DNA of 19,408 nt from Escherichia coli (GCF_003334385.1 NZ_QOWN01000061.1); one strand, 5' to 3'. Shown: positions 109 to 19,408, counted from the first letter of the stretch. A program made the numbers and translations. The notes: generated from the letters alone by a model not told the origin.

Positions 109-1311
109 TTACAGCACCAGTGCTGCGATTGACGCAGACAGCACACTCACCAGGGTAGAGCCGTAAACCAGCTTCAGACCGAAGCGAGAAACCACGTTAC
201 CTTGCTCTTCATTCAGGCCTTTAACTGCACCTGCGATAATCCCGATTGAAGAGAAGTTAGCGAAGGAAACCAGGAACACAGAGATGATGCCTTCAGCACG
301 CGGAGAGAGCGTGGAAGCAATTTTCTGCAGATCCATCATCGCAACGAACTCGTTGGAAACCAGTTTGGTCGCCATGATACTGCCCACTTGCAGTGCTTCA
401 CTGGAAGGAACACCCATCACCCATGCAATCGGATAGAAGATGTAGCCCAGGATGCCCTGGAAGGAGATGCTGTAGCCAAACCAGCCAGTAACGGTGGCAA
501 ACAGTGCGTTCAGCGCGGCGATCAGGGCGATAAAGCCAATCAGCATCGCGGCAACGATAATGGCAACTTTGAAACCTGCCAGAATGTATTCACCCAGCAT
601 TTCGAAGAAGCTCTGACCTTCGTGCAGGTTGGACATCTGGATGTTTTCTTCACTGGCATCAACACGGTAAGGATTGATCAGCGACAGCACGATAAAGGTG
701 CTGAACATGTTCAGTACCAGCGCAGCAACGACGTATTTCGGTTCCAGCATGGTCATGTATGCACCAACGATGGACATCGACACGGTGGACATTGCCGTGG
801 CAGCCATGGTGTACATACGATTACGGGAGATTTTGCCGAGGATATCTTTATAGGCAATAAAGTTTTCAGACTGACCCAGAATCAGGGAGCTGACGGCGTT
901 AAAGGATTCCAGTTTGCCCATGCCGTTGACTTTGGAGAGCAGGAAACCAATTGCGCGGATGATCACCGGCAACACGCGAATGTGCTGGAGAATACCGATC
1001 AGTGCAGAGATAAAGACGATTGGGCACAGCACTTTCAGGAAGAAGAATGCCAGGCCTTGATCATTCATGCTACCAAAGACGAAGTTAGTCCCTTCGTTGG
1101 CAAATCCGAGCAGTTTTTCGAACATTTCGGAGAAGCCTTTCACGAAGCCTAAACCAACGTCGGAGTTCAGGAAGAACCACGCCAGTAACACTTCGATAAC
1201 AAGCAGTTGAATAACATAACGGATACGAATTTTTTTGCGGTCGCTGCTTACCAGCAGTGCGAGAATCGCAACAACGGCAAGTGCCAGTACAAAATGAAGG
1301 ACGCGGTCCAT
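109..1311 (-). CDS. nupC: Nucleoside:H+ symporter NupC (CNT family), 400 aa
   Basis: The 413-aa minus-strand ORF at 109-1350 is trimmed to the internal ATG at 1311 ([13 protein letters not shown]...), which has a GGAG Shine-Dalgarno upstream and gives the 400-aa length I recall for NupC. Polytopic membrane protein; stop TAA at 109-111. Confidence 0.93.
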
Positions 1312-1406
1312 ATTTGCTCCAAATATGAGGCAGGTTAAATTTCCGTGCACATTCTATGTAACATGGTTAAGGAAAACGAGATCTGACACACACTATAATG
1401 ACGTCC

Positions 1407-1422
1407 TGTGACAGGCTTCAAA
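1407..1422. promoter_or_regulatory. Candidate CRP-like site TGTGA-N6-TCAAA in the nupC upstream region
   Basis: TGTGAcaggctTCAAA lies about 100 bp upstream of the nupC start. nupC is known to be CRP/CytR controlled, but this site is a by-eye match to the consensus only. Confidence 0.25.
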
Positions 1423-1577
1423 AATAGTGATCTGTCATACATTTCTGCTATGTTGTGTATGGAAGCTGAAAGTTATGTAAATGTGCTAACATTAAACATA
1501 ACCATAACATTCAAGTCATCAATCTTTTCGTAGTCATAATCCTGGTCTATCAGAGAAATCACCACAATCCATTTAAA

Positions 1578-1596
1578 TGAATTTGATAATCATTCT
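1578..1596. promoter_or_regulatory. Fur box upstream of mntH
   Basis: gaatttGATAATCATTctc matches about 15 of 19 positions of the Fur consensus GATAATGATAATCATTATC, roughly 50-70 bp upstream of the mntH ATG. Iron repression of mntH is established. Confidence 0.55.
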
Positions 1597-1612
1597 CGTT
1601 TGGCATAGCATG

Positions 1613-1634
1613 AAACATAGCAAAGGCTATGTTT
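1613..1634. promoter_or_regulatory. MntR operator, a 9-4-9 palindrome
   Basis: AAACATAGC-AAAG-GCTATGTTT is a perfect inverted repeat ending 12 bp before the mntH ATG. It matches the MntR box I recall for the E. coli mntH promoter. Confidence 0.65.
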
Positions 1635-1637
1635 TAG

Positions 1638-2885
<1,248 letters not shown>

Positions 2886-2889
2886 TTGA

Positions 2890-3024
<135 letters not shown>

Positions 3025-3025
3025 T

Positions 3026-3352
3026 TTAATGGCGGTGCCCATGACCCCGGCCTTTTCCGCGATGATCGTCACGATCGCGCCAGCCTTCACGATAGCCACG
3101 CTCATACGCTTTACGCTTATCCCAGCCACGGTGGTAGCCATTATCATGACGCCACCAACGGTTTTTGCGCCACTCATAATTGCGATGCCAGTAGTCACGG
3201 TCGCGCCAGTGACCACCGTCCCAGTAATTACCGTAATGATCGCGATCGCCAATTTGTAATTTGATTGATGGCAGTAGGGTGATTTCACCTGCGTTTGCTG
3301 CAAGCGGGGTAAATGCCATCAGGGCGGCCGCCAGAAACAGTGACCTGAACAT
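3026..3352 (-). CDS. ypeC: Small secreted protein YpeC (DUF2502), 108 aa, with a signal peptide and a low-complexity R/D/W/H/Y/G-rich mature region
   Basis: Minus-strand ORF with AAGGAGA Shine-Dalgarno about 7 nt upstream of the ATG. N-terminal signal peptide [21 protein letters not shown] followed by a repetitive charged, Trp-rich sequence ending [12 protein letters not shown]. Confidence 0.88.
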
Positions 3353-3466
3353 TGTTATTCTCCTTCACGCTCGAAGCCGTCAGCGGCCTGTTAACGCAAT
3401 ATTACGGGGAGGTAAAGCCCCGTATCATCGCCATAACTCTTAAATCATAAAGGAGAGCATTTTTTG

Positions 3467-4723
3467 CTAAACGTTATCGTGGGGTGGCTGTTGCTTCGGA
3501 CGATTGACCATCATCATCGGCTTACCTGCTAATAACAGCCATGCCGGAAGCATGACGATACAGAGCAGCGGTAGCAATGTGGTATTGGGTACAACGACTG
3601 CCGCCATAAAAAGACTTAACCAGCCATCGCGTGTTACCACCAGCACGATGCCGAGAATAGCGCAAGAAACGGTTATTGCCGCTGGTACGGCGGGAACGTG
3701 CTCATGCAGCATCAACCCTAATGCCACGCCGACAAACACTGCCGGGAAGATTCGCCCACCGCGAAAGCCACTGGCGGCAGCAACGACCAGGGCGGCAAGT
3801 TTAATTACCGCCAGCAAAAAGTAATCGCTGGTGCTGAAAGCCTGATTTGCCACCATTTGCTGCATCTCATCCAGCCCTTTAAACAGCGAAACTGGTCCAC
3901 CAATAACCCCCAGAATACCGAGAATAAATCCGCCAATACCCAGCACGAGCACCGGATTTTTCATTTGATGCATCATCGCGTGCAACCGTGGTAAGCACCA
4001 TACGGCGACCATCCCTGCTGCGATGGCAATCGCCGCGACAATTGCACCGCTGAGAATATCGGTCATTTCCATCTGTCCGTAATGAGCAATGGGCAGTGAA
4101 AAATGAGGATGGAAAAATAATCCGGTAGTAAGTGCACCAGCTGCTGCCGCCATTAACGGCGCAAAGAGACGATCCCATAGCGGAACTTCACTACTGCCAT
4201 TTAAGGTTTGCGAAAATATCAACGCCGCCGCAACAGGAGTGCCAAACAGTGCGCCGATGGTTCCGGCAGAGGCTAAAATAGTCCACTCCATTCGGTTGAC
4301 GCGCGGTAACAGACGAGCGCCAATGGCAACCGCAAGGGCGATATTGACGGTCATGATCGGATGTTCCGGCCCCAGGCTGACGCCGCCAGCAAGACCGAGA
4401 ATTAATGCTACGATAAGTCCAGGTAGCGCAGAGGGCGGAACCGGTGCGCCGATCAGCGGTTCACAGGCGGGGTCTGGTCCGGCATGACCCTGGCTGAAAC
4501 GGATAACCAACCCCACCGCAATACCCGTTAGCGTTAATACACCGATGATCCAGAGGGGTGAATCCTGGGCTATCCCCAGAGTTCCCGGCAGTCGTTGCCA
4601 GAGCAAATTCTGTAATACCGAGGCGATTTTCATCACCACAATCAGAATAAGACTGGACGCAATCCCAATTGCCACGGCGGGGAGCGATAATAACAACATG
4701 GTTCTGGCTCGCGGATGGAGCAT
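3467..4723 (-). CDS. yfeO: Putative ion-transport membrane protein YfeO (ClC chloride-channel-like family), 418 aa
   Basis: 418-aa polytopic membrane ORF, Gly/Ala-rich helices. Identity and length match recalled YfeO; the family assignment is from memory. Confidence 0.85.
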
Positions 4724-4926
4724 GTTCTATTCCTTATGCGGGGTCAGATACTTAGTTTGCCCAGCTTGCAAAAAGGCATCGCTGCAATTGGTGCTGAAAC
4801 GATAAAGTAATTGTGTGACCCAGATCGATATTTACAGGGAGCCTGCCTTTCCGGCGTTGTTGTTATGCCCCCAGGTATTTACAGTGTGAGAAAGAATTAT
4901 TTTGACTTTAGCGGAGCAGTTGAAGA

Positions 4927-5892
4927 ATGACAAAGTATGCATTAGTCGGTGATGTGGGCGGCACCAACGCACGTCTTGCTCTGTGTGATATTGCCAGTGG
5001 TGAAATCTCGCAGGCTAAGACCTATTCAGGGCTTGATTACCCCAGCCTCGAAGCGGTCATTCGCGTTTATCTTGAAGAACATAAGGTCGAGGTGAAAGAC
5101 GGCTGTATTGCCATCGCTTGCCCAATTACCGGTGACTGGGTGGCGATGACCAACCATACCTGGGCGTTCTCAATTGCCGAAATGAAAAAGAATCTCGGTT
5201 TTAGCCATCTGGAAATTATTAACGATTTTACCGCTGTATCGATGGCGATCCCGATGCTGAAAAAAGAGCATCTGATTCAGTTTGGTGGCGCAGAACCGGT
5301 CGAAGGTAAGCCTATTGCGGTTTACGGTGCCGGAACGGGGCTTGGGGTTGCGCATCTGGTCCATGTCGATAAGCGTTGGGTAAGCTTGCCAGGCGAAGGC
5401 GGTCACGTTGATTTTGCGCCGAATAGTGAAGAAGAGGCCATTATCCTCGAAATATTGCGTGCGGAAATTGGTCATGTTTCGGCGGAGCGCGTGCTTTCTG
5501 GCCCTGGGCTGGTGAATTTGTATCGCGCAATTGTGAAAGCTGACAACCGCCTGCCAGAAAATCTCAAGCCAAAAGATATTACCGAACGCGCGCTGGCTGA
5601 CAGCTGCACCGATTGCCGCCGCGCATTGTCGCTGTTTTGCGTCATTATGGGCCGTTTTGGCGGCAATCTGGCGCTCAATCTCGGGACATTTGGCGGCGTG
5701 TTTATTGCGGGCGGTATCGTGCCGCGCTTCCTTGAGTTCTTCAAAGCCTCCGGTTTCCGTGCCGCATTTGAAGATAAAGGGCGCTTTAAAGAATATGTCC
5801 ATGATATTCCGGTGTATCTCATCGTCCATGACAATCCGGGCCTTCTCGGTTCCGGTGCACATTTACGCCAGACCTTAGGTCACATTCTGTAA
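4927..5892 (+). CDS. glk: Glucokinase, 321 aa
   Basis: [20 protein letters not shown]-terminal ATP-binding motif of the ROK-like glucokinase family; full length 321 aa. Stop TAA at 5890-5892. Confidence 0.96.
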
Positions 5893-5905: not shown

Positions 5906-5937
5906 TATCGGGAGGTAACTCTCCCGATAATCTTTTA
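5906..5937 (+). terminator. Probable intrinsic terminator of glk
   Basis: Inverted repeat TATCGGGAG-gtaa-CTCCCGATA (5906-5928) followed by a short T-rich tract (aTCTTTT), 14 nt after the glk stop. Confidence 0.5.
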
Positions 5938-6110
5938 AATCATACAGTTTATTCAATTTTTCTTTGTGTCCCCTCACAAGGTCGACCTGCGTCACACTTC
6001 CGTACAGCGGGATTAATTCTCCAGTAAATGCATTATTTGTCTGGTAACGGCGATTTGTTTTGCACGTTCATAATTTCACTCGTCAACTATCACTGAACGA
6101 GGAATTAACG

Positions 6111-6437
6111 ATGAGTAAGAAACTGATTGCCTTATGTGCCTGCCCGATGGGCCTGGCTCACACCTTTATGGCCGCTCAGGCGCTGGAAGAAGCGGCGGTA
6201 GAAGCCGGTTATGAAGTGAAAATTGAAACCCAGGGCGCGGACGGTATCCAGAATCGCCTGACGGCGCAGGATATCGCCGAAGCGACCATCATCATCCACT
6301 CCGTGGCAGTTACCCCGGAAGATAACGAACGTTTCGAATCACGCGACGTTTATGAAATCACTTTGCAGGACGCAATTAAAAACGCTGCGGGCATCATCAA
6401 AGAAATCGAAGAGATGATTGCCTCTGAACAACAGTAA
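6111..6437 (+). CDS. fryB: PTS fructose-like EIIB component FryB, 108 aa
   Basis: The ORF-track start at 6060 is trimmed to the ATG at 6111, which is preceded by GAGGA. The active-site Cys context LCACPMGLAHTF is typical of fructose-type EIIB. First gene of a tightly packed five-gene operon. Confidence 0.9.
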   Translation: MSKKLIALCACPMGLAHTFMAAQALEEAAVEAGYEVKIETQGADGIQNRLTAQDIAEATIIIHSVAVTPEDNERFESRDVYEITLQDAIKNAAGIIKEIEEMIASEQQ

Positions 6438-6458
6438 TATTCGACAGGGATAATTGTT

Positions 6459-7706
6459 ATGGCCATTAAAAAACGCAGTGCAACCGTTGTGCCTGGCGCA
6501 TCCGGTGCGGCAGCGGCAGTTAAGAATCCGCAGGCCTCTAAAACCAGCTTCTGGGGTGAACTCCCGCAGCATGTGATGTCAGGGATTTCACGCATGGTGC
6601 CGACCTTAATTATGGGCGGTGTGATCCTCGCTTTCAGCCAGCTGATTGCTTATAGCTGGCTTAAAATTCCTGCTGAGATCGGCATCATGGATGCTCTTAA
6701 TAGCGGGAAATTCTCCGGTTTCGACCTCTCCTTACTTAAATTTGCCTGGCTGTCGCAGTCCTTCGGCGGCGTGTTGTTTGGTTTTGCCATTCCGATGTTT
6801 GCTGCTTTTGTGGCGAACTCTATCGGTGGCAAACTGGCGTTCCCGGCTGGTTTTATCGGCGGGTTGATGTCTACCCAGCCGACGCAACTGCTGAACTTCG
6901 ATCCCAGCACTATGCAATGGGCGACCTCTTCGCCGGTGCCGTCCACCTTCATTGGTGCGCTGATTATTTCTATCGTTGCCGGTTACCTTGTGAAGTGGAT
7001 GAACCAGAAAATCCAGTTACCGGATTTCCTGTTAGCGTTCAAAACCACATTTTTGCTCCCGATTCTTTCCGCCATTTTTGTCATGCTGGCGATGTACTAC
7101 GTCATCACCCCCTTTGGTGGCTGGATCAACGGCGGTATCCGTACTGTGCTGACTGCCGCAGGTGAGAAGGGCGCGCTGATGTACGCAATGGGGATCGCCG
7201 CGGCGACAGCAATCGACCTTGGTGGCCCGATCAACAAAGCCGCAGGTTTTGTTGCCTTCAGCTTTACCACTGACCACGTATTACCGGTCACCGCTCGTTC
7301 TATCGCTATCGTTATTCCGCCGATTGGTCTGGGGCTGGCGACCATTATCGACCGTCGTTTAACCGGCAAACGCCTGTTCAACGCTCAACTTTATCCGCAG
7401 GGTAAGACCGCCATGTTCCTGGCGTTTATGGGGATCAGTGAGGGTGCGATTCCGTTTGCGCTGGAAAGCCCCATCACCGCCATTCCGTCGTATATGGTCG
7501 GCGCTATTGTCGGCTCAACCGCCGCTGTCTGGCTGGGCGCAGTGCAATGGTTCCCGGAGTCCGCTATCTGGGCATGGCCGCTGGTCACTAACCTGGGCGT
7601 CTATATGGCGGGGATCGCGCTGGGGGCAGTCATAACTGCGCTGATGGTGGTGTTCCTGCGTCTGATGATGTTCCGTAAAGGCAAATTGTTAATCGATAGC
7701 CTGTAA
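6459..7706 (+). CDS. fryC: PTS fructose-like EIIC permease FryC, 415 aa
   Basis: Polytopic membrane ORF 22 nt downstream of fryB with an AGGGA ribosome-binding site. Length matches FryC. Confidence 0.92.
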
Positions 7707-7720
7707 GAAGGAAAATCCAG

Positions 7721-8806
7721 ATGACATTACTCGCTTCGCTGCGCGACTGGCTTAAGGCGCAACAACTGGATGTAGTGCTTCTCTCCTCACGGCAGAACAA
7801 ACAGCCGCATCTGGGGATCTCCACCGGATCAGGTTATGTGGTGATTAGCCGTGAAAGTGCGCACATTCTGGTGGATTCGCGCTATTACGTTGAGGTGGAA
7901 GCCCGTGCGCAAGGCTACCAGCTGCATTTGCTTGACGCGACGAACACGCTTACCACTATCGTCAATCAAATCATTGCCGATGAACAGTTGCAAACGCTCG
8001 GTTTTGAGGGCCAGCAGGTGAGTTGGGAAACCGCGCACCGCTGGCAGTCTGAACTCAATGCGAAACTGGTTAGCGCCACGCCGGATGTGCTGCGGCAAAT
8101 CAAAACGCCAGAGGAGGTGGAGAAAATCCGCCTCGCCTGTGGGATTGCTGATCGCGGTGCAGAGCATATTCGCCGCTTTATTCAGGCGGGGATGAGCGAG
8201 CGCGAGATAGCCGCTGAACTGGAGTGGTTTATGCGCCAGCAGGGCGCAGAAAAAGCCTCTTTTGACACCATTGTCGCCAGTGGCTGGCGTGGGGCGCTGC
8301 CGCACGGCAAAGCCAGCGACAAGATTGTTGCAGCGGGCGAGTTTGTCACTCTCGATTTCGGTGCGCTGTATCAGGGCTACTGCTCTGATATGACGCGCAC
8401 CTTGCTGGTGAATGGCGAAGGGGTGAGCGCCGAATCTCACCCGCTGTTTAACGTCTATCAAATTGTCCTGCAGGCACAGCTCGCAGCAATCTCCGCGATT
8501 CGCCCCGGCGTGCGCTGCCAGCAGGTTGACGATGCCGCGCGCCGGGTCATTACAGAAGCAGGTTATGGCGACTATTTCGGTCATAACACCGGTCACGCTA
8601 TCGGCATTGAAGTTCATGAAGATCCGCGTTTTTCACCGCGGGACACCACGACGCTACAGCCAGGCATGTTACTGACCGTGGAGCCGGGGATTTATTTGCC
8701 AGGGCAAGGGGGCGTGCGCATCGAAGATGTTGTGCTGGTTACCCCGCAAGGCGCAGAAGTGCTCTACGCCATGCCGAAAACAGTGTTGCTCACGGGAGAG
8801 GCATAA
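7721..8806 (+). CDS. ypdF: Xaa-Pro aminopeptidase YpdF (peptidase family M24), 361 aa
   Basis: M24 metal-ligand motif [13 protein letters not shown] and the pita-bread fold consensus. AGGAAAA ribosome-binding site before the ATG. Confidence 0.93.
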
Positions 8807-9843
8807 TGGATTTATCGCTATTAAAAGCGTTGAGCGAGGCAGATGCGATCGCCTCCTCGGAACAGGAAGTGCGGCAGATCCTGCTGGAAGAAGCGGATCG
8901 CCTGCAAAAAGAAGTGCGATTTGATGGTCTGGGATCGGTGCTGATCCGCCTGAATGAATCGACAGGTCCGAAGGTGATGATCTGTGCGCATATGGACGAA
9001 GTGGGATTTATGGTGCGCAGCATCTCCCGCGAAGGGGCGATTGATGTGCTGCCGGTTGGCAACGTACGCATGGCTGCCCGCCAGCTGCAGCCGGTGCGCA
9101 TCACCACCCGTGAAGAGTGCAAAATTCCAGGCCTGCTTGACGGCGACCGGCAGGGGAATGACGTCAGCGCCATGCGCGTGGACATTGGTGCGCGCTCCTA
9201 TGACGAAGTGATGCAGGCGGGAATTCGTCCCGGCGATCGCGTCACGTTTGATACCACTTTTCAGGTTCTCCCTCACCAGCGAGTGATGGGGAAAGCCTTT
9301 GATGACCGCCTCGGTTGCTATCTGCTGGTGACGTTACTGCGCGAACTGCACGACGCCGAACTACCTGCGGAAGTGTGGCTGGTGGCAAGTTCCAGCGAAG
9401 AGGTGGGATTACGCGGCGGGCAAACTGCCACCCGCGCGGTGTCGCCGGACGTCGCCATTGTGCTTGATACCGCCTGCTGGGCGAAAAACTTTGATTATGG
9501 CGCGGCTAACCATCGCCAGATTGGTAACGGGCCGATGCTGGTGTTAAGCGACAAGTCGCTGATTGCGCCGCCAAAACTTACCGCCTGGGTCGAAACCGTG
9601 GCGGCAGAAATTGGCGTGCCGTTGCAGGCAGATATGTTCAGCAACGGCGGCACGGACGGCGGGGCGGTGCACTTAACCGGCACCGGCGTGCCCACAGTGG
9701 TGATGGGGCCAGCAACCCGCCATGGACATTGCGCCGCATCGATTGCCGATTGCCGCGACATTTTGCAGATGCAGCAACTTTTATCTGCCCTTATTCAACG
9801 TCTTACGCGTGAGACGGTTGTTCAACTGACGGATTTCAGATGA
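8806..9843 (+). CDS. ypdE: Aminopeptidase YpdE (peptidase family M42, FrvX/SgcX-like), 345 aa
   Basis: M42 signature HMDEVGFMV. The start ATG overlaps the ypdF stop (TAATG), indicating translational coupling. Confidence 0.93.
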
Positions 9844-9867
9844 TCTCCTGATTAACCCGGAGCGGTT

Positions 9868-12363
9868 ATGTTAACGATTCAATTTCTCTGTCCTTTGCCT
9901 AACGGTCTACATGCTCGTCCGGCGTGGGAACTTAAAGAACAGTGCAGCCAGTGGCAAAGCGAAATCACTTTTATTAACCATCGCCAGAACGCAAAGGCAG
10001 ATGCGAAAAGCTCGCTGGCGCTGATTGGCACCGGCACCCTATTTAATGACAGTTGCAGCCTGAACATTAGCGGCAGCGATGAAGAGCAGGCGCGGCGCGT
10101 GCTGGAAGAGTACATCTAGGTGTGCTTTATCGACAGCGACAGCGTTCAGCCTACGCAGGCAGAACTGACGGCGCATCCGCTGCCGCGTTCATTAAGCCGC
10201 CTTAACCCGGATTTACTGTACGGCAATGTGCTGGCAAGCGGCGTCGGCGTGGGTACGCTGACCCTGTTACAAAGCGACAGCCTCGACAGTTATCGGGCAA
10301 TCCCCGCCAGTGCGCAAGATTCCACCCGGCTGGAGCACAGCCTGGCAACGCTTGCCGAGCAACTGAACCAGCAATTGCGTGAGCGTGACGGCGAAAGCAA
10401 AACTATCCTCAGCGCCCATTTGTCGCTGATTCAGGATGATGAATTTGCAGGCAATATCCGTCGCCTGATGACAGAACAGCATCAGGGGCTGGGGGCGGCG
10501 ATCATCAGCAATATGGAGCAGGTTTGCGCCAAACTTTCTGCCTCTGCCAGCGATTATCTGCGCGAACGTGTTAGCGACATTCGCGATATCAGCGAACAGT
10601 TGCTGCATATCACCTGGCCGGAACTGAAGCCGCGCAACAAGCTGGTGCTTGAAAAACCGACCATTCTGGTGGCTGAAGATTTAACCCCAAGCCAGTTTTT
10701 GAGCCTTGATTTGAAAAATCTTGCGGGCATGATTCTGGAGAAAACCGGGCGCACCTCGCATACACTGATTCTGGCCCGTGCCTCGGCGATCCCGGTACTG
10801 AGTGGCTTGCCGCTGGATGCGATTGCCCGTTATGCCGGGCAACCTGCAGTGCTTGACGCCCAGTGCGGCGTGCTGGCGATTAACCCGAATGACGCGGTGA
10901 GCGGTTATTATCAGGTCGCGCAGACGCTGGCGGATAAACGCCAAAAACAACAGGCGCAGGCTGCCGCGCAGCTGGCCTATTCCCGTGATAACAAGCGTAT
11001 TGATATTGCGGCGAATATCGGCACCGCTCTGGAAGCGCCAGGCGCGTTTGCCAACGGCGCGGAAGGTGTCGGGCTGTTCCGTACCGAAATGCTCTATATG
11101 GATCGCGACAGCGCGCCGGACGAGCAGGAGCAATTTGAAGCCTACCAGCAGGTGCTACTGGCGGCGGGCGACAAGCCGATTATCTTCCGCACGATGGACA
11201 TCGGCGGCGATAAAAGCATTCCTTATCTGAATATTCCCCAGGAAGAGAACCCGTTCCTCGGCTATCGCGCGGTACGTATTTACCCGGAATTTGCTGGCCT
11301 GTTCCGCACTCAACTGCGGGCCATTTTGCGCGCCGCCAGTTTCGGCAACGCCCAGTTGATGATCCCGATGGTTCACAGCCTCGATCAGATCTTATGGGTG
11401 AAAGGCGAGATCCAAAAAGCGATCGTTGAGCTTAAGCGCGATGGCCTGCGTCATGCAGAGACGATTACGCTTGGGATCATGGTGGAAGTTCCGTCGGTGT
11501 GCTACATCATCGACCACTTCTGCGATGAGGTCGATTTCTTCAGTATCGGCTCCAACGATATGACCCAGTATCTGTATGCGGTCGATCGTAATAACCCGCG
11601 CGTATCGCCGCTATATAACCCGATTACGCCATCGTTCCTGCGCATGTTGCAGCAAATAGTTACCACTGCGCATCAGCGGGGCAAATGGGTAGGCATTTGC
11701 GGTGAACTGGGCGGTGAAAGCCGTTATCTGCCGCTACTGCTTGGGCTGGGCCTGGATGAGCTGAGTATGAGTAGCCCGCGTATTCCGGCGGTGAAAAGCC
11801 AGCTTCGTCAACTGGATAGCGAGGCGTGTCGGGAACTGGCGCGTCAGGCATGTGAATGCCGCAGTGCGCAGGAAATTGAAGCGTTACTCACCGCCTTTAC
11901 GCCGGAAGAAGACGTTCGCCCACTGCTGGCGCTGGAGAATATCTTTGTTGATCAGGATTTTAGCAATAAAGAGCAGGCGATCCAGTTCCTGTGCGGCAAC
12001 CTCGGCGTTAACGGGCGCACTGAACATCCGTTTGAGCTGGAAGAAGATGTCTGGCAGCGGGAAGAGATTGTTACCACCGGCGTTGGTTTTGGCGTAGCGA
12101 TCCCGCACACCAAATCTCAGTGGATCCGTCATTCCAGTATCAGCATTGCCCGGCTGGCGAAACCGATTGGCTGGCAGTCAGAAATGGGCGAAGTCGAACT
12201 GGTGATCATGCTGACGCTGGGTGCTAACGAAGGGATGAATCATGTGAAAGTCTTCTCGCAGCTGGCGCGTAAACTGGTGAATAAAAACTTCCGCCAGTCG
12301 TTGTTTGCCGCGCAAGATGCACAAAGTATCCTGACGCTGCTGGAAACAGAATTAACCTTCTGA
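9868..12363 (+). CDS. fryA: PTS multiphosphoryl transfer protein FryA (fused HPr-like, Enzyme I-like and EIIA-Fru-like domains). As written, the frame is interrupted by an in-frame TAG at 10117-10119, giving an 83-codon HPr-like ORF (9868-10119) and a 747-codon EI-EIIA ORF (10120-12363).
   Basis: The HPr motif GLHARPA, the EI phospho-His motif GRTSHTLILARA and the EIIA motif GVAIPH are all present in one frame. The span is 2496 nt, which equals 832 codons, the size of a single 831-aa fused protein. The TAG is visible directly in the sequence (TAC ATC TAG GTG TGC). Confidence 0.85.
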
Positions 12364-12365
12364 CG

Positions 12366-13223
12366 TTAGCCCTGAAAACGGGCGCTGTACTCTCCCGGCG
12401 TCAGACCAAACTGACGCCGGAAAACGCGACAAAAATAGTCGCTATCCGGAAAACCGCAACGCTGTGCCACTTCATGAATTGACAGATGATATTTCTGCAA
12501 AATCATCCTCGCCTTCGCCATTCGCACCCAACGCACATACTCGATAAAACGCATCGTTCCATGCTGAGCAAACAGTTTTGACAGATGATTGGGCGTGATA
12601 TTAAAAAACTGCGCCACGCTCTCGCGGGTGAGCGGCTGGGCATAATTATCCTGAACCCAGTTACAAATGCTGTGATAGAGAAAATCGCCGCGCGGCTGCG
12701 AATTGCCCGGCGGCATATTCACCACGCTACGGCAAAGATGCAGCAAACTTAACACCAGCGGCTGAATGATATTTTGCTCCAGCGGCGAACGGCTAAGATG
12801 GGTGAGGGCGGTAAGCATCGCTTCACCTTCACCGCGTTGCAGGCTGGGAAGCTGGATCTGGCGAGCAGGATGCAACAACGACGTGGTGCGGCTATCGTAA
12901 AACGATAACCCAAGCCAGGTCGGAGCGAACACCAGGCTTAACAGCATCACCGGTTTGTTGTTGACCGGTAAATTAGCCGCGCGCGCCGGAATAAACAGCA
13001 TTTCTCCTTCCACCAAACGTTGCTGCTTTGCTTCCAGCAGATTGCCGTATTCGCCGCGCAGCACGATATCCAGACGGGGAAAATCAATACATAAACTGCC
13101 CACCGGCAACGAGGCAGGCTGGCTGGCAAACCAGACGCGCCCCAGTAGTTGCGGGTTAAGCACCAGGCCGCTGAACAGATCGGCGAAAAATTGTTGATCG
13201 GCGGGCAAGCCTGGTGCTTTCAT
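12366..13223 (-). CDS. ypdC: AraC-family transcriptional regulator YpdC, 285 aa
   Basis: C-terminal AraC-type helix-turn-helix (…FIEYVRWVRMAKARMILQ…HEVAQRCGFPDSDYFCRVFRRQFGLTPGEY). Stop TAA at 12366-12368, 2 nt from the fryA stop. Confidence 0.9.
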   Translation of the reverse strand: MKAPGLPADQQFFADLFSGLVLNPQLLGRVWFASQPASLPVGSLCIDFPRLDIVLRGEYGNLLEAKQQRLVEGEMLFIPARAANLPVNNKPVMLLSLVFAPTWLGLSFYDSRTTSLLHPARQIQLPSLQRGEGEAMLTALTHLSRSPLEQNIIQPLVLSLLHLCRSVVNMPPGNSQPRGDFLYHSICNWVQDNYAQPLTRESVAQFFNITPNHLSKLFAQHGTMRFIEYVRWVRMAKARMILQKYHLSIHEVAQRCGFPDSDYFCRVFRRQFGLTPGEYSARFQG

Positions 13224-13235
13224 GAAAGTTCCCGA

Positions 13236-13970
13236 TTAAAGATGCATTAACTGGCGAAATTCTTTCACTTTGCTGCGGCTGACCGGCACTTCAAAATCCA
13301 GATCTTTCAGTCGCAGAATGTAGGTGTTATTAAACCACGGTTCGATTTCGCGTATTTTGTTCAGATTGACACAAAATGAGCGATGGCAGCGGAAAAAATG
13401 CGACGGCGGCAGTTTGCTGCAAAATTCGGTAATGTTCATCGGCATTACGTAGGATTCACGCCGCGTATAGACAAAGGTCATTTTCTCGTGCGCTTCGGCG
13501 TAATAGATATCGTTAATTGGCGTGACGATTATTCGCTCATCTTTCACCAGATTAATGGTGTCATTCTCACGCGTTACCGTCGCGGCAGGCGTACTGCTGG
13601 TCTGCTGTTGTTGCCAGGCCGCTTCCAGTTTTTGCAGCATCCCGGTAATACGTGACTCCTGATACGGTTTGAGAATGTAGTCAAACGCCTCCAGTTCAAA
13701 CGCTTCTACCGCATGTTCTTTCCACGCGGTGATGAACACAATAAACGGTTTATGGGCGAACTGGCTGATGTTTTGCGCCAGCAACACGCCATCCAGCGAC
13801 GGAATATTGATATCCAGAAAAATGGCGTCGACGCGGTTATGCTGCAAAAACTTCAACACGTCCAGACCGTCGTCAAAGGTGCCGACAATCTCCATCTGGC
13901 TGTGCTCTTTAATTAGCCAGCTCAGTTCCTGTTGTGCCAGGAATTCGTCTTCAACAATGATGACTTTCAC
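13236..13970 (-). CDS. ypdB: LytTR-family response regulator YpdB, 244 aa
   Basis: Receiver domain (VIIVEDE…AIFLDINIP) plus a C-terminal LytTR DNA-binding domain. The ORF-track TTG start at 13988 is trimmed to the GTG at 13970, preceded by GGAG, giving 244 aa. Confidence 0.88.
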   Translation of the reverse strand: MKVIIVEDEFLAQQELSWLIKEHSQMEIVGTFDDGLDVLKFLQHNRVDAIFLDINIPSLDGVLLAQNISQFAHKPFIVFITAWKEHAVEAFELEAFDYILKPYQESRITGMLQKLEAAWQQQQTSSTPAATVTRENDTINLVKDERIIVTPINDIYYAEAHEKMTFVYTRRESYVMPMNITEFCSKLPPSHFFRCHRSFCVNLNKIREIEPWFNNTYILRLKDLDFEVPVSRSKVKEFRQLMHL

Positions 13971-13984
13971 AATATCACTCCGGC

Positions 13985-15682
13985 TCAAAGCAATAACGTA
14001 GCCTGTGAGGCGACTGGGGTGCGTTGGTTAGGAATGTAAAACGCAATTTCCGTCCCCGGCTCCAGGCGGCGGATATGCAGCCCCTCGCCATACAATAACT
14101 TCACGCGATGATGGACATTCAGCAGGCCAATTTTATTGCCCGGCATTTCATTCGCTTCGACCCGCTCAATCACCTTTGGATCGATGCCGTGCCCGGTATC
14201 TCGCACCGCAATGCGTACCCGATTTCCGCACTCTGCAACGCTGATGGTGACAACGCCTTTACCTTTGCAAGGCTGAATACCGTGGACAATGGCGTTCTCC
14301 ACCAACGGCTGGATCAGCAGGCTGGGAATGCAGCAATTCACCTCTTCATCAATATCATAGATAACCGTCAGCTTGTCACCAAAGCGGGCCTGCTCAATGG
14401 CAATATAGTCTTTAATTTGATACAGCTCTTTTTTGATATCGATTTGCTCATCGTCTTTTAATTCAATGTTATAGCGCAGATAACGCGACAGATTAAAGAT
14501 CAACTGGCGAGCGGTATCCGGATTCAGACGGATTGACGATGAAATAGCGTTCAGAGCGTTAAACAGAAAATGGGGATTAATTTTGCTTTGCAGGGCGCGA
14601 AGCTCTGCCTTATTTGCCATTTCACGTAGCTGCTCGGCGCGTGAAACCTCCAGTTGCGTGGAGATGATTTGCGACAGACCGACCGCCATTTCCTGTAATG
14701 ACGAGGTGATCTGATGCGCGTGGCAGTAGTAAATTTTCAGCGTTCCGGTCACGACCCCTTTCTCCCACAATGGGATCACCAGCATGGAATGAATCTCTGG
14801 TGTGCGGTGGGCTTCATCATTGTTTTTAATGATGATTTTTCCGTAATTCATCGCCTGACGGGTAGTCGGGCTAATGAAGTCATCGCCATTCTGATAGTTA
14901 TGTTCACCCACGCCAACATAGGCCAGCACATGATCGGTATTAGTAATCGCCACCGCATCGGCGTGAATGTCATCGCGGATAATTTCGCAGACCTTGCGTA
15001 ATGACTCGCTATTGACATGGCGAAACAGCGGTAGCGTTTTGTTGGCGATATCCAGCGCCAGCTTGGCCTGCCGCGCGGCGCTGGCCTCTTTTTCGCCCTC
15101 AACGCTTTGCACCAGAAGCACAATAAAGCCGATACAGACGCTACCGAGGATCATTGGAATGCCGATTTTAGAGACGATATCGATCCCCAACGCGGTAGTT
15201 GGTGCCCAGACAATTACCAGAATCATGGTCAACGTCTCACACAACATGCCGCCGAGAATACCGACGCGCCAGCGCTGTGCTTTGGGGATTTTCAGGTTGA
15301 TCCAGCCCGATATACAACCCGCCAGAATGCTGGTGATAAAGCAGGGGATCGCCGTCACGCCGCCGATATCAATTAAATACCGGTGAATACCCGCAATCAC
15401 GCCGGTAATGATGCCTACCCACGGGCCAAACAGAATCCCGCCGGACATCACCGCGATAATACGTACGTTCACCAGCGAGCCTTCTACGGGAACGCCGGAC
15501 CAGGTGCTGAACAGGGCGAACAGCGAGAAAATGGCGGTAACGGCGAGCAATTCTTTTGGGGAGTGCGCCGACTTGTGCAACAGTTCGCGAAACAGGCGGA
15601 TACGGATGAGAAAGAACAGGCAGATAAGCATTAACGCTGCCCGATCGAAGACCGCCAGCAGCATGTTGAATATTTCGTGCAC
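13985..15682 (-). CDS. ypdA: LytS-family sensor histidine kinase YpdA, 565 aa
   Basis: N-terminal multi-transmembrane sensor domain, a central GAF-like region, the H-box [10 protein letters not shown] and a C-terminal ATPase domain. It lies immediately upstream of ypdB on the same strand. Confidence 0.93.
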
Positions 15683-16057: not shown

Positions 16058-17296
16058 ATGGCTGACACTCGCCCTGAACGTCGCTTTACGCGCATTGATC
16101 GTCTCCCGCCCTACGTTTTTAACATCACCGCTGAACTGAAAATGGCTGCGCGTCGGCGCGGCGAAGATATTATCGATTTCAGCATGGGTAACCCGGACGG
16201 TGCGACTCCGCCGCATATCGTCGAAAAATTATGTACTGTGGCCCAGCGCCCGGACACGCATGGTTACTCCACTTCACGCGGCATTCCGCGGTTACGTCGC
16301 GCCATTTCCCGCTGGTATCAGGATCGCTACGACGTTGAAATCGACCCGGAATCAGAAGCCATCGTCACTATTGGTTCGAAAGAGGGCCTGGCGCATCTGA
16401 TGCTGGCGACGCTGGATCATGGTGACACGGTGCTGGTGCCGAATCCAAGTTACCCGATCCATATTTATGGCGCGGTGATTGCCGGGGCGCAGGTACGCTC
16501 AGTGCCGCTGGTGGAAGGTGTCGATTTCTTCAACGAACTGGAGCGAGCCATTCGTGAAAGTTATCCGAAACCGAAGATGATGATCCTCGGCTTCCCGTCA
16601 AACCCAACCGCGCAATGCGTGGAACTGGAGTTCTTCGAAAAAGTAGTGGCGCTGGCGAAACGCTACGATGTGCTGGTGGTCCATGACCTGGCCTATGCCG
16701 ATATCGTCTACGATGGCTGGAAAGCGCCGTCAATTATGCAGGTACCGGGTGCACGCGATGTGGCAGTCGAGTTCTTTACGCTGTCGAAAAGCTACAACAT
16801 GGCGGGCTGGCGTATCGGCTTTATGGTTGGCAACAAAACGCTGGTCAGCGCCCTGGCTCGTATTAAAAGCTATCACGATTACGGCACCTTTACGCCGTTG
16901 CAGGTGGCGGCGATTGCGGCGCTGGAGGGCGATCAACAGTGCGTGCGCGACATTGCCGAACAGTACAAACGCCGCCGTGATGTATTGGTTAAAGGGCTGC
17001 ATGAAGCGGGCTGGATGGTTGAAATGCCGAAGGCTTCGATGTATGTCTGGGCGAAAATCCCGGAACCATATGCGGCCATGGGATCGCTGGAATTTGCCAA
17101 GAAGCTCCTTAACGAAGCGAAGGTTTGTGTCTCGCCGGGGATTGGCTTTGGCGACTATGGTGATACGCATGTTCGCTTTGCACTGATTGAAAACCGCGAC
17201 CGTATTCGTCAGGCCATCAGAGGGATTAAAGCGATGTTCCGTGCCGACGGTTTACTACCCGCCAGCAGCAAACATATTCACGAAAACGCGGAATAA
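16058..17296 (+). CDS. alaC: Glutamate-pyruvate aminotransferase AlaC (class I PLP-dependent aminotransferase), 412 aa
   Basis: PLP-lysine region [12 protein letters not shown] and aminotransferase class I fold motifs. Full-length ORF with a GAGG ribosome-binding site. Confidence 0.95.
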
Positions 17297-19303: not shown

Positions 19304-19408
19304 TGGGTCAGGATGGCTCATTTGGGCAGGTTGATCTTACCCAGCAATAGTGGACACGCGGCTAAGTGAGTAAACTCTCAGTCAGAGGTGACTCACATGA
19401 CAAAAACA

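Follow-up and report, generated by a model that had tools for sequence, protein, structure and literature searches.

Why would an operon for sugar transport include the genes of two aminopeptidases? The question is raised by positions 6111-12363 of a 19,408-nucleotide (nt) stretch of Escherichia coli DNA (NZ_QOWN01000061.1), referred to here as the window. Family assignments, near-identical genomes and the RefSeq annotation identify this segment as the already annotated E. coli fryB-fryC-ypdF-ypdE-fryA operon, in which a fructose-type phosphotransferase system (PTS) is combined with an M24 and an M42 metallo-aminopeptidase. Comparative evidence strongly supports a functional link between these peptidases and the PTS. 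A preliminary description of the window, made from the sequence alone, had placed five genes here, and exactly five open reading frames (ORFs) lie inside the segment:

fryB, 6111..6437, plus strand: PTS enzyme IIB (EIIB), fructose family, 108 amino acids (aa), phospho-acceptor Cys11
fryC, 6459..7706, plus strand: PTS enzyme IIC (EIIC) permease, fructose family, 415 aa
ypdF, 7721..8806, plus strand: M24B (Xaa-Pro type) metallo-aminopeptidase, 361 aa, carrying A18V (single-nucleotide polymorphism at 7773)
ypdE, 8806..9843, plus strand: M42 (TET-type) metallo-aminopeptidase, 345 aa, its start overlapping the ypdF stop
fryA, 9868..12363, plus strand: frame for a fusion of HPr, enzyme I (EI) and fructose-type enzyme IIA (EIIA), 831 codons, interrupted by an amber codon

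The fry locus and its missing explanation are already known. E. coli K-12 has the same genes in the same order and with the same spacing (fryBC-ypdFE-fryA, b2387-b2383; RefSeq, EcoCyc), the same five coding sequences (CDS) are present in E. coli C, and the product has been termed "the putative PTS permease FryABC" (PMC5364489). Using NCBIfam models with their curated cutoffs, we assigned FryB to the fructose-type EIIB family (TIGR00829, 92.2 bits, cutoff 76.85), with Cys11 inside CPMGLAHT, which fits the motif CP.G.AHT of that family. FryC falls just short of the fructose-type EIIC model (TIGR01427, 157.0 bits, cutoff 157.55); PF02378 of Pfam is found on its homologues, and RefSeq names it "PTS fructose transporter subunit IIC". 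YpdF scores 816.8 bits against the M24 aminopeptidase equivalog NF007310 (cutoff 393) and YpdE 681.4 bits against the M42 aminopeptidase model NF007421 (cutoff 412). Within FryA, the EI domain (TIGR01417, 506 bits, cutoff 341.7) and the EIIA domain (TIGR00848, 138.8 bits, cutoff 103.5) exceed their cutoffs, and the HPr domain, which has the GLHARPA motif, is slightly short of its own (TIGR01003, 44.3 bits, cutoff 47.9). YpdF is identical to PDB entry 5CNX ("Aminopeptidase YpdF") at all but 2 of 360 aligned residues and matches the Creatinase_N plus pita-bread layout of peptidase family M24B, while YpdE is identical to the Shigella SF2450 protein in PDB entry 1YLO at all but 6 of 345.

The catalytic motifs are intact, as the preliminary description had judged them to be. 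The two-metal site of YpdE (H62, D64, D166, E198, E199, D221 and H308) does not vary across 18 aligned sequences, FrvX and SgcX among them, and the metal ligands of YpdF (D212, D223, H292, E321 and E335) are invariant in nine cassette homologues. All phospho-site residues are present as well, namely H15, H298, C611 and H747 of FryA and C11 of FryB.

The same description had pointed to the M42 genes of two other PTS loci, and K-12 MG1655 does carry frvA-frvB-frvX-frvR and sgcX-sgcB-sgcC-sgcQ-sgcA-sgcE-sgcR. Like fry, both are cryptic PTS operons with an embedded M42 gene; in these two the M42 gene overlaps its PTS neighbor, by 11 nt in frv and by 4 nt in sgc. E. coli has three M42 aminopeptidases (PMC3511314), so the positions of ypdE, frvX and sgcX place all three in PTS operons. 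FrvX and SgcX share an M42 superclade with YpdE, to which they are 36% and 31% identical, respectively. Unlike fry, the frv and sgc operons have no M24 partner and no private EI or HPr, and the EIIC of sgc belongs to the galactitol family. Their regulators, FrvR (which has PTS regulation domains, PRD) and SgcR, also differ from the AraC-family protein encoded beside fry.

A co-occurrence analysis of M42 genes and PTS genes showed that the association is far wider than these three E. coli loci, extending over Enterobacteriaceae, Vibrio and clostridia and over two PTS families. Among 1.84 billion representative proteins, orthologues of YpdE are at least 75% identical to it, and a gap then follows down to 45% or less. 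The genomic contexts of six of the closest outgroup proteins were inspected: four of the six stand beside PTS genes, with M24 also on three of those contigs, the fifth contig has an adjacent M24 gene alone and the sixth is too short to hold any neighbor. For a broader view, M42 loci were collected from named genomes, one genome per species, giving at least 80 loci from the 600 matches listed, and were annotated with phmmer using as queries the window proteins and the PTS proteins of K-12 and of one clostridial contig. Among the matches listed, 16 of the 80 M42 loci were PTS-linked. All 12 of the loci whose M42 protein is closest to YpdE lie in a PTS cluster, and 11 of these 12 also have an M24 gene, the contig of the twelfth ending inside the cluster. 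The layouts of the 80 loci, among the matches listed, were as follows:

YpdE orthologues, 4 loci: fry layout
Caproiciproducens faecalis, Enterocloster lavalensis and a Lachnospiraceae metagenome-assembled genome (MAG), 3 loci: PRD regulator, EIIA, EIIB, EIIC, M24, M42 and a PF00155 gene, in the E. coli order
Clostridium cavendishii, a Clostridium MAG and Terrisporobacter, 3 loci: PRD regulator, M42, EIIA, EIIB, EIIC, M24 and a PF00155 gene, with a PTS of the lactose/cellobiose (Lac) family
Vibrio marinisediminis, 1 locus: Lac-type EIIB, EIIC, M24 and M42
FrvX orthologues, 3 loci: frv layout
Clostridium baratii and another Lachnospiraceae MAG, 2 loci: Lac-type PTS, then two M42 genes
Remaining loci, mostly Bacillaceae, 64 loci: M42 31-39% identical to YpdE, with no PTS or M24 match within 10 kb

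The Terrisporobacter contig stops inside the EIIC gene, ahead of any visible M24. A Lac-family PTS with M24 and M42 was also found on several metagenomic contigs. In the clostridial cassettes with the E. coli gene order, the proteins are 74-77% (FryB), 57-64% (FryC), 45-46% (YpdF) and 43-48% (YpdE) identical to those of the window. In a neighbor-joining tree, calculated without support values, the PTS-linked M42 proteins form one superclade apart from the housekeeping type; judged from these sequences, association with a PTS is a property of a particular M42 lineage. The link has survived shifts in phylum, in gene order, in regulator and even in PTS family, which is hard to explain without a shared substrate.

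Some loci in this set show further M42 arrangements. On contigs L040 (Clostridium baratii, 6566-11010) and L067 (3741-11050), two M42 genes from different clades stand in tandem behind a Lac-family EIIB and EIIC, and M24 is absent; L067 has a PRD regulator and an EIIA gene upstream of its Lac-family PTS. Nine representative proteins of 700-790 aa (P0139, P0147, P0155, P0158, P0161, P0162, P0177, P0204 and P0261) contain two M42-like stretches each and appear to be tandem-fused M42 proteins.

The fry genes themselves are maintained. Of 5426 complete E. coli genomes, 5416 contain the locus (6.6-kb query, at least 80% coverage and at least 95% identity). In Nei-Gojobori comparisons with Citrobacter werkmanii and Superficieibacter electus, the ratio of nonsynonymous to synonymous substitution rates (dN/dS) is 0.01-0.14 for all five genes and 0.03 for glk, values that are rough because dS is saturated. 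In the same two species FryB and FryC are 92-96% identical to the window proteins and YpdF is 70-73% identical, the transporter genes being the most constrained. At the level of the species the fry genes are under purifying selection and show no decay; together with the intact sites, these numbers bear out the earlier view that, the fryA stop apart, they are not decayed genes.

The cassette also keeps its composition where its surroundings change. FryC homologues of 65% and 76% identity lie on enterobacterial contigs with unrelated flanks, lacking glk and ypdAB, and both contigs retain EIIB, EIIC, M24, M42 and the HPr-EI-EIIA fusion, here 831-832 aa long; next comes a convergently oriented gene of the AraC family (281-282 aa). 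The same arrangement of cassette and AraC-family gene occurs in E. albertii, in two Citrobacter species and in Superficieibacter. In the window this gene is ypdC:

ypdC, 12366..13223, minus strand: AraC-family gene, convergent with fryA, with 2 nt between the two stop codons

Counterparts of ypdC stand beside the cassette at 15817-16662 of contig L004 and 15978-16826 of contig L005, where ypdA and ypdB are absent. We had considered ypdC as a member of the ypdAB unit and rejected this as the main interpretation. Because it stays with fry in the absence of ypdAB, ypdC travels with fry and not with the ypdAB pyruvate sensor, making YpdC a candidate regulator of fry. It can be named as the likely switch of the operon, which would allow fry to be turned on for substrate screening.

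What kind of substrate might the PTS and the peptidases share? The clostridial cassettes provide a chemical clue. They share the EIIB-EIIC-M24-M42 core with fry (Caproiciproducens faecalis, Enterocloster lavalensis, Clostridium cavendishii and others) and differ from it in having a PRD activator and a separate EIIA where fry has YpdC and FryA, in existing in a second version with a lactose/cellobiose-family PTS, and in ending with the PF00155 gene. In all five cases tested, this gene encodes a PatB-family C-S lyase (TIGR04350, 348-369 bits, cutoff 340):

PatB gene, contig L011, 12279-13490
PatB gene, contig L023, 14160-15338
PatB gene, contig L024, 11056-12234
PatB gene, contig L026, 11092-12315
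PatB gene, contig L041, 11031-12218

The Caproiciproducens cassette (L024) is the one that continues with a class I mannose-6-phosphate isomerase gene (12278-13243), and on the metagenomic contig L011 PatB is followed by an alanine dehydrogenase gene (13506-14624). In Peribacillus loiseleuriae (L078, 5246-11065), an M42 gene whose product groups with SgcX comes directly after a Dpp/Opp-type peptide importer of the ATP-binding cassette class (ATPase, two permeases and binding protein), so the same type of M42 enzyme also sits behind a conventional peptide transporter. The clostridial PatB genes and this M42 gene beside a Dpp/Opp importer fit a putative imported substrate with an amino-acid part. 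As for the E. coli enzymes, Zheng et al. reportedly found in 2005 that YpdE is a broad aminopeptidase and that YpdF favors Xaa-Pro and some Met-Xaa bonds; with these specificities, the two would be complementary on a proline-containing peptide.

Directly upstream of the clostridial M42 cassette, contig L011 carries a second sugar operon (153-5862) with a fructose-type EIIBCA, a HAD hydrolase, a SIS-domain protein of 383 aa, a PfkB kinase and a class II aldolase, a set that brings to mind pathways of the tagatose or Amadori type. The PF00155 gene of the clostridial cassettes has an aminotransferase fold, and we also considered the alanine transaminase gene alaC, which resembles it and in the window lies at 16058-17296, 3.7 kb from fryA and past the pyruvate-sensing ypdAB, as a member of the pathway. 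We rejected this as an apparent coincidence: the clostridial PF00155 gene is PatB and not an alanine transaminase, AlaC belongs to a different subfamily from it, and alaC is not next to the cassette in Superficieibacter or on contigs L004-L007.

These observations make a sharper substrate class plausible. We consider the evidence evenly balanced on whether the cassette is a self-contained system for the uptake and catabolism of an aminoacylated or peptidylated sugar or polyol. The cassette would also be horizontally mobile. FryA would take phosphate from phosphoenolpyruvate and pass it through its HPr, EI and EIIA domains, via FryB, to a substrate entering through FryC, presumably a sugar or polyol to which an aminoacyl or short peptidyl group is attached, its N terminus being free. 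In the cytoplasm, YpdE, as the broad M42 enzyme, and YpdF, as the M24B enzyme for Xaa-Pro-like bonds that block other aminopeptidases, would remove the amino acids, and the phospho-sugar left over would enter central metabolism. In clostridia, the PatB C-S lyase may complete the core by handling a cysteine-type residue, which suggests cysteine or a cysteine S-conjugate in the substrate there. In enterobacteria, the cassette would have gained independence of the general PTS through acquisition of the HPr-EI-EIIA fusion and the AraC-type regulator. We infer the order of these steps.

Known systems provide precedents for parts of this scheme. The frlABCD genes (fructoselysine, E. coli) and gfrABCDEF (glucoselysine, Salmonella) take up sugar-amino acid conjugates, gfr by a PTS, and free the amino acid in the cytoplasm. 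The gfr PTS is of the mannose family and sigma-54 dependent, and the bond is cut by SIS-domain deglycases and not by metallopeptidases; the fry cassette differs in having no SIS-domain deglycase. For 2-O-alpha-mannosyl-D-glycerate, E. coli uses MngA and MngB, a fructose-family PTS importing a sugar conjugate that is split in the cytoplasm, as proposed for fry. FryB, FryC and the EIIA domain match the MngA model with E-values of 5e-24, 3e-29 and 5e-21, all far under its 763-bit cutoff, and the partner of MngA is a glycoside hydrolase where those of fry are peptidases. For the clostridial cassettes, the closest parallel in logic comes from the thioalcohol pathway of Staphylococcus hominis, which two reports describe as uptake of a Cys-Gly S-conjugate by a peptide transporter, followed by a dipeptidase and the C-S lyase PatB (PMC7385124, PMC11742315). 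Import of a cysteine S-conjugate, peptidase trimming and PatB cleavage would be common to both; the S. hominis pathway involves no PTS uptake and a different peptidase, and E. coli fry has no PatB.

Several points weigh against import of a conjugate by the cassette. Deglycase, glycosidase and C-S lyase are all missing from the E. coli cassette, so its genes do not add up to a complete pathway, and its weak point is that the peptidases are the sole enzymes in it that could break a sugar-amino acid bond. The usual substrates of M42 TET enzymes, which form dodecameric cages, are plain peptides, and we know of no PTS that imports a peptide conjugate. The searchable full-text literature yielded no substrate, inducer or regulator of fry. 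The missing support values of the M42 tree and the saturated dS also count on this side. An in-frame deletion of fryA improves growth on lysogeny broth (LB) plates after a 24-h LB culture and has no such effect on glucose minimal plates (PMC5364489), which shows that fryA matters physiologically and points to no substrate. Finally, chromatin immunoprecipitation with exonuclease treatment (ChIP-exo) gave no YpdC binding sites under the conditions tested (PMC8464067), a result that would be expected of an AraC-type activator without its inducer.

A wider version of this proposal is that EIIB-EIIC-M24-M42 represents an unrecognized mobile catabolic module of Enterobacteriaceae, Vibrio and gut Clostridia, joined in Clostridia by PatB, for PTS import of a sugar- or polyol-peptide or -cysteine conjugate. 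We put it forward tentatively and regard it as doubtful. Its candidate substrates would be glycated or S-/N-glycosyl peptides, sugar-cysteine thiazolidines and bacillithiol-like compounds. If it is true, this would be the first PTS known for a peptide-bearing substrate, and E. coli's three orphan M42 enzymes as well as the cryptic Fry, Frv and Sgc would gain a physiological role. Were the substrate a glyco-amino acid or glycopeptide from the diet or the host, the cassette would define a new nutrient niche common to gut enterobacteria and clostridia.

An alternative that keeps the PTS as a transporter is that YpdE and YpdF are amidohydrolases here and cleave a phosphorylated amino sugar at an amide bond that is not a peptide bond, which would make the substrate a glyco-amino-acid instead of a glycopeptide. 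Such an amide could join an amino acid to the 2-amino group of glucosamine (GlcN), as in bacillithiol- or mycothiol-like Cys-GlcN. The M24 fold does include non-peptidases (ectoine hydrolase, DddP and creatinase-type relatives of YpdF found in the family search), the M42 family includes the hydrolase of the N-acetylglutaminylglutamine amide (NAGGN) system, the MngA model matched by FryB, FryC and the EIIA domain belongs to a transporter for the glycoside of a hydroxy acid, and the clostridial PatB fits a cysteine-containing substrate. However, YpdE, and reportedly (Zheng 2005) also YpdF, cleaves ordinary peptides in vitro, there is no clear need for two different aminopeptidases on one amide bond, and the cassette has no glycosidase. 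We rate this alternative as rather unlikely.

Does the operon work in the strain that supplied the window? The preliminary description had noticed a stop within fryA, and it is real in the given sequence:

TAG in place of CAG (Q84*), 10117..10119, plus strand: in-frame amber codon 84 at the HPr/EI domain boundary, with T10123 (R86C) 6 nt downstream

FryA is thus not encoded as one uninterrupted 831-aa polypeptide in this strain, in contrast to E. coli C, where an intact 831-aa CDS is annotated, and to the other complete genomes probed, whose fryA is intact. The HPr model spans FryA residues 11-82, and an in-frame GTG at 10120, the codon directly after TAG, opens a 747-aa EI-EIIA ORF in which the EI model starts about 34 residues in. 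Only a weak Shine-Dalgarno-like sequence, GGAAGAG, precedes this GTG. Q84* would separate HPr from EI-EIIA, and the phosphorelay is probably lost or strongly reduced unless restart at GTG or an amber suppressor intervenes: with re-initiation, HPr and EI-EIIA might be made as two separate proteins, and a supE-type suppressor would restore the wild-type Gln at codon 84. Because of this private amber codon, fry probably does not work in this strain as it does in other E. coli, and for the window itself the practical point is a smaller one, a private nonsense mutation in a known gene.

To count the stop across the species we used a 59-nt probe on which megablast seeds only in genomes with T10117 or T10123. 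It matched 7 of the 5426 complete E. coli genomes, none of them exactly, and two of the seven that were inspected, one per identity band, have CAG together with TGC. TAG at codon 84 was thus seen in none of the 5426 complete E. coli genomes and is private to this strain or an error, while R86C is a rare natural variant found in 7 genomes. The closest E. coli genomes, E. coli C among them, show 3 differences in 6601 bases. Relative to the operon of E. coli C, and likewise to that of K-12, the window copy has the three changes A18V in ypdF and Q84* and R86C in fryA, all C to T against E. coli C. Over the whole window there are 7 differences from E. coli C, five of them C to T on the plus strand: at 1661 (mntH R5R, silent), 3857 (yfeO Q289Q, silent), 7773 (ypdF A18V), 10117 (fryA Q84*), 10123 (fryA R86C), 15842 (ypdA-alaC intergenic) and 18324 (lpxP I129V). 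The collection contains no complete E. coli genome identical to the window.

It is unlikely that FryA is effectively intact in this strain, either because sequencing or assembly introduced the TAG at 10117 in error or because a supE-type tRNA inserts Gln there. The wild-type codon CAG, which specifies Gln, is one transition from TAG, the TAG is found in no other genome, and a second private change (ypdF A18V) together with the rare R86C makes a low-quality or mutagenized source possible. Against this, the remaining differences from E. coli C resemble ordinary polymorphisms, two being silent and R86C occurring naturally in 7 genomes; as for a suppressor tRNA, the window offers nothing, and none was searched for. 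Two further readings were rejected. A base editor or mutagenesis as the source of the two C-to-T changes 6 nt apart finds no support: C10116 is unchanged in an editor-preferred context, R86C occurs naturally and silent changes are among the other differences. Programmed readthrough or recoding at the TAG has no support from conservation, the TAG being seen in none of the 5426 genomes.

The private EI and HPr could also be read as a regulatory phosphorelay, like PtsP-PtsO-PtsN, in which the state of FryA and FryB reports carbon status and controls the catabolism of ordinary cytoplasmic peptides by YpdE and YpdF. An EI and HPr of its own is what the nitrogen PTS has, and the growth effect of the fryA deletion is seen on peptide-rich LB plates and not on glucose minimal medium (PMC5364489). 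However, a full-length EIIC is present, EIIB and EIIC are the best conserved part of the cassette, with EIIC 92% identical within enterobacteria and 57-64% across phyla, and the clostridial PRD regulator with EIIA, EIIB and EIIC but no private EI is the layout of a normal catabolic PTS; a purely regulatory role is distinctly improbable. Very improbable is the last alternative, that ypdF and ypdE encode housekeeping peptidases and only by chance lie within a PTS operon that is cryptic and decaying, with no functional link to it, for which the absence of a substrate or inducing condition on record, the fryA nonsense mutation as a sign of decay in this strain and the truncated or fused fryC/ypdF products in some E. 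coli records can be cited, and which is contradicted by an M24, M42 and PTS trio that recurs across phyla in two gene orders and with two PTS families, by presence in 5416 of 5426 genomes, by the dN/dS values and by a stop seen in none of those 5426 genomes. Both the regulatory and the accidental reading are disfavored because EIIB and EIIC are the most conserved components and the trio recurs across phyla.

Conjugate import by the cassette bears on an older problem, namely what the cryptic PTS systems Fry, Frv and Sgc transport, a question that dates from their discovery by genome analysis in the 1990s. The comparison adds a conserved four-gene core in which the transporter and not the peptidases is most conserved, and a C-S lyase as a chemical clue, and makes this roughly thirty-year-old cryptic-PTS question directly testable. 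M42 specialists have called the reason why E. coli keeps three M42 aminopeptidases unstudied; their paper on the three paralogues, which cites Zheng et al. 2005 for the characterization of YpdE as an aminopeptidase and gives the enzyme as dodecameric (unpublished data), does not mention the PTS (PMC3511314), and a recent survey of archaeal M42 diversity mentions neither the PTS nor genomic context. In the searchable literature we found no description of the cross-phylum EIIB-EIIC-M24-M42 core, the PatB partner, the swap of PTS family or ypdC as a member of the cassette, although gene-neighborhood databases and subscription papers may note them.

How is the operon organized and delimited? The preliminary description gave gaps of 22 nt or less and one TAATG overlap. 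This holds for fryB-fryC (21 nt), fryC-ypdF (14 nt) and the 1-nt overlap of ypdF and ypdE, whose TAATG lies within GCATAATGG, and fails for ypdE-fryA, where the gap is 24 nt. A pattern scan found no convincing terminator inside the five fry genes. Spacing, the lack of an internal terminator and conserved gene order are all consistent with co-transcription of the five genes, which we infer from them, and a published regulon table gives fryBC-ypdFE-fryA as one unit, with ypdF up 1.9-fold and fryA up 1.5-fold (PMC2731931). Two features lie upstream of fryB:

glk terminator hairpin, 5906..5929, plus strand: TATCGGGAG-N6-CTCCCGATA, a perfect 9-nt inverted repeat followed by a T-rich run
Conserved fry upstream region, 5992..6074, plus strand: three blocks defined by sequence conservation

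This strong hairpin closes glk and delimits the fry transcription unit on its upstream side. The three blocks are TCACACTTCC (5992-6001), TCCAGTAAATGCATTATTTGTCTGGTAAC (6020-6048) and a -10-like CATAAT (6069-6074) with no good -35 element, and they are common to E. coli, Citrobacter, Superficieibacter and two metagenomic enterobacterial loci with different flanking genes. On this conservation the region is a candidate activator-dependent promoter/operator, possibly for YpdC. We do not claim a CRP site 5' of fryB, where only a TCACA half-site is conserved and a left half to match it is missing. No repeats of note occur in the leader beyond the glk terminator, and no Rfam family exceeded its threshold anywhere in the window.

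Base composition also sets the cassette apart, at 55.5% G+C against about 50% in the flanks. The cassette lies 2-5 points above its 20-kb surroundings in every host examined (the window and contigs L004, L005, L022, L024, L026, L041, L023 and L031). Since the excess is present in every host and so identifies no donor, we rejected it as a sign of recent transfer.

Some E. coli records contain altered products of the operon (P0080, P0081, P0112 and P0085). There are proteins of 653-688 aa that fuse the FryC EIIC to M24 (Creatinase_N plus Peptidase_M24) or M42 domains; these could be natural fusions, frameshifts or deletions in the operon. In some other E. coli records FryC is shortened at its N terminus to 379-384 aa.

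Around the operon, the gene order of the window is nupC, mntH, ypeC, yfeO, glk, fryB, fryC, ypdF, ypdE and fryA, followed on the opposite strand by ypdC, ypdB and ypdA, with alaC, ypdK and lpxP beyond them. The best-matching genomes listed, E. coli C included, align to the window only as far as 19331; positions 19332-19408 match elsewhere or in few strains (for example in ES4, in two pieces) and are a strain-variable junction downstream of lpxP.

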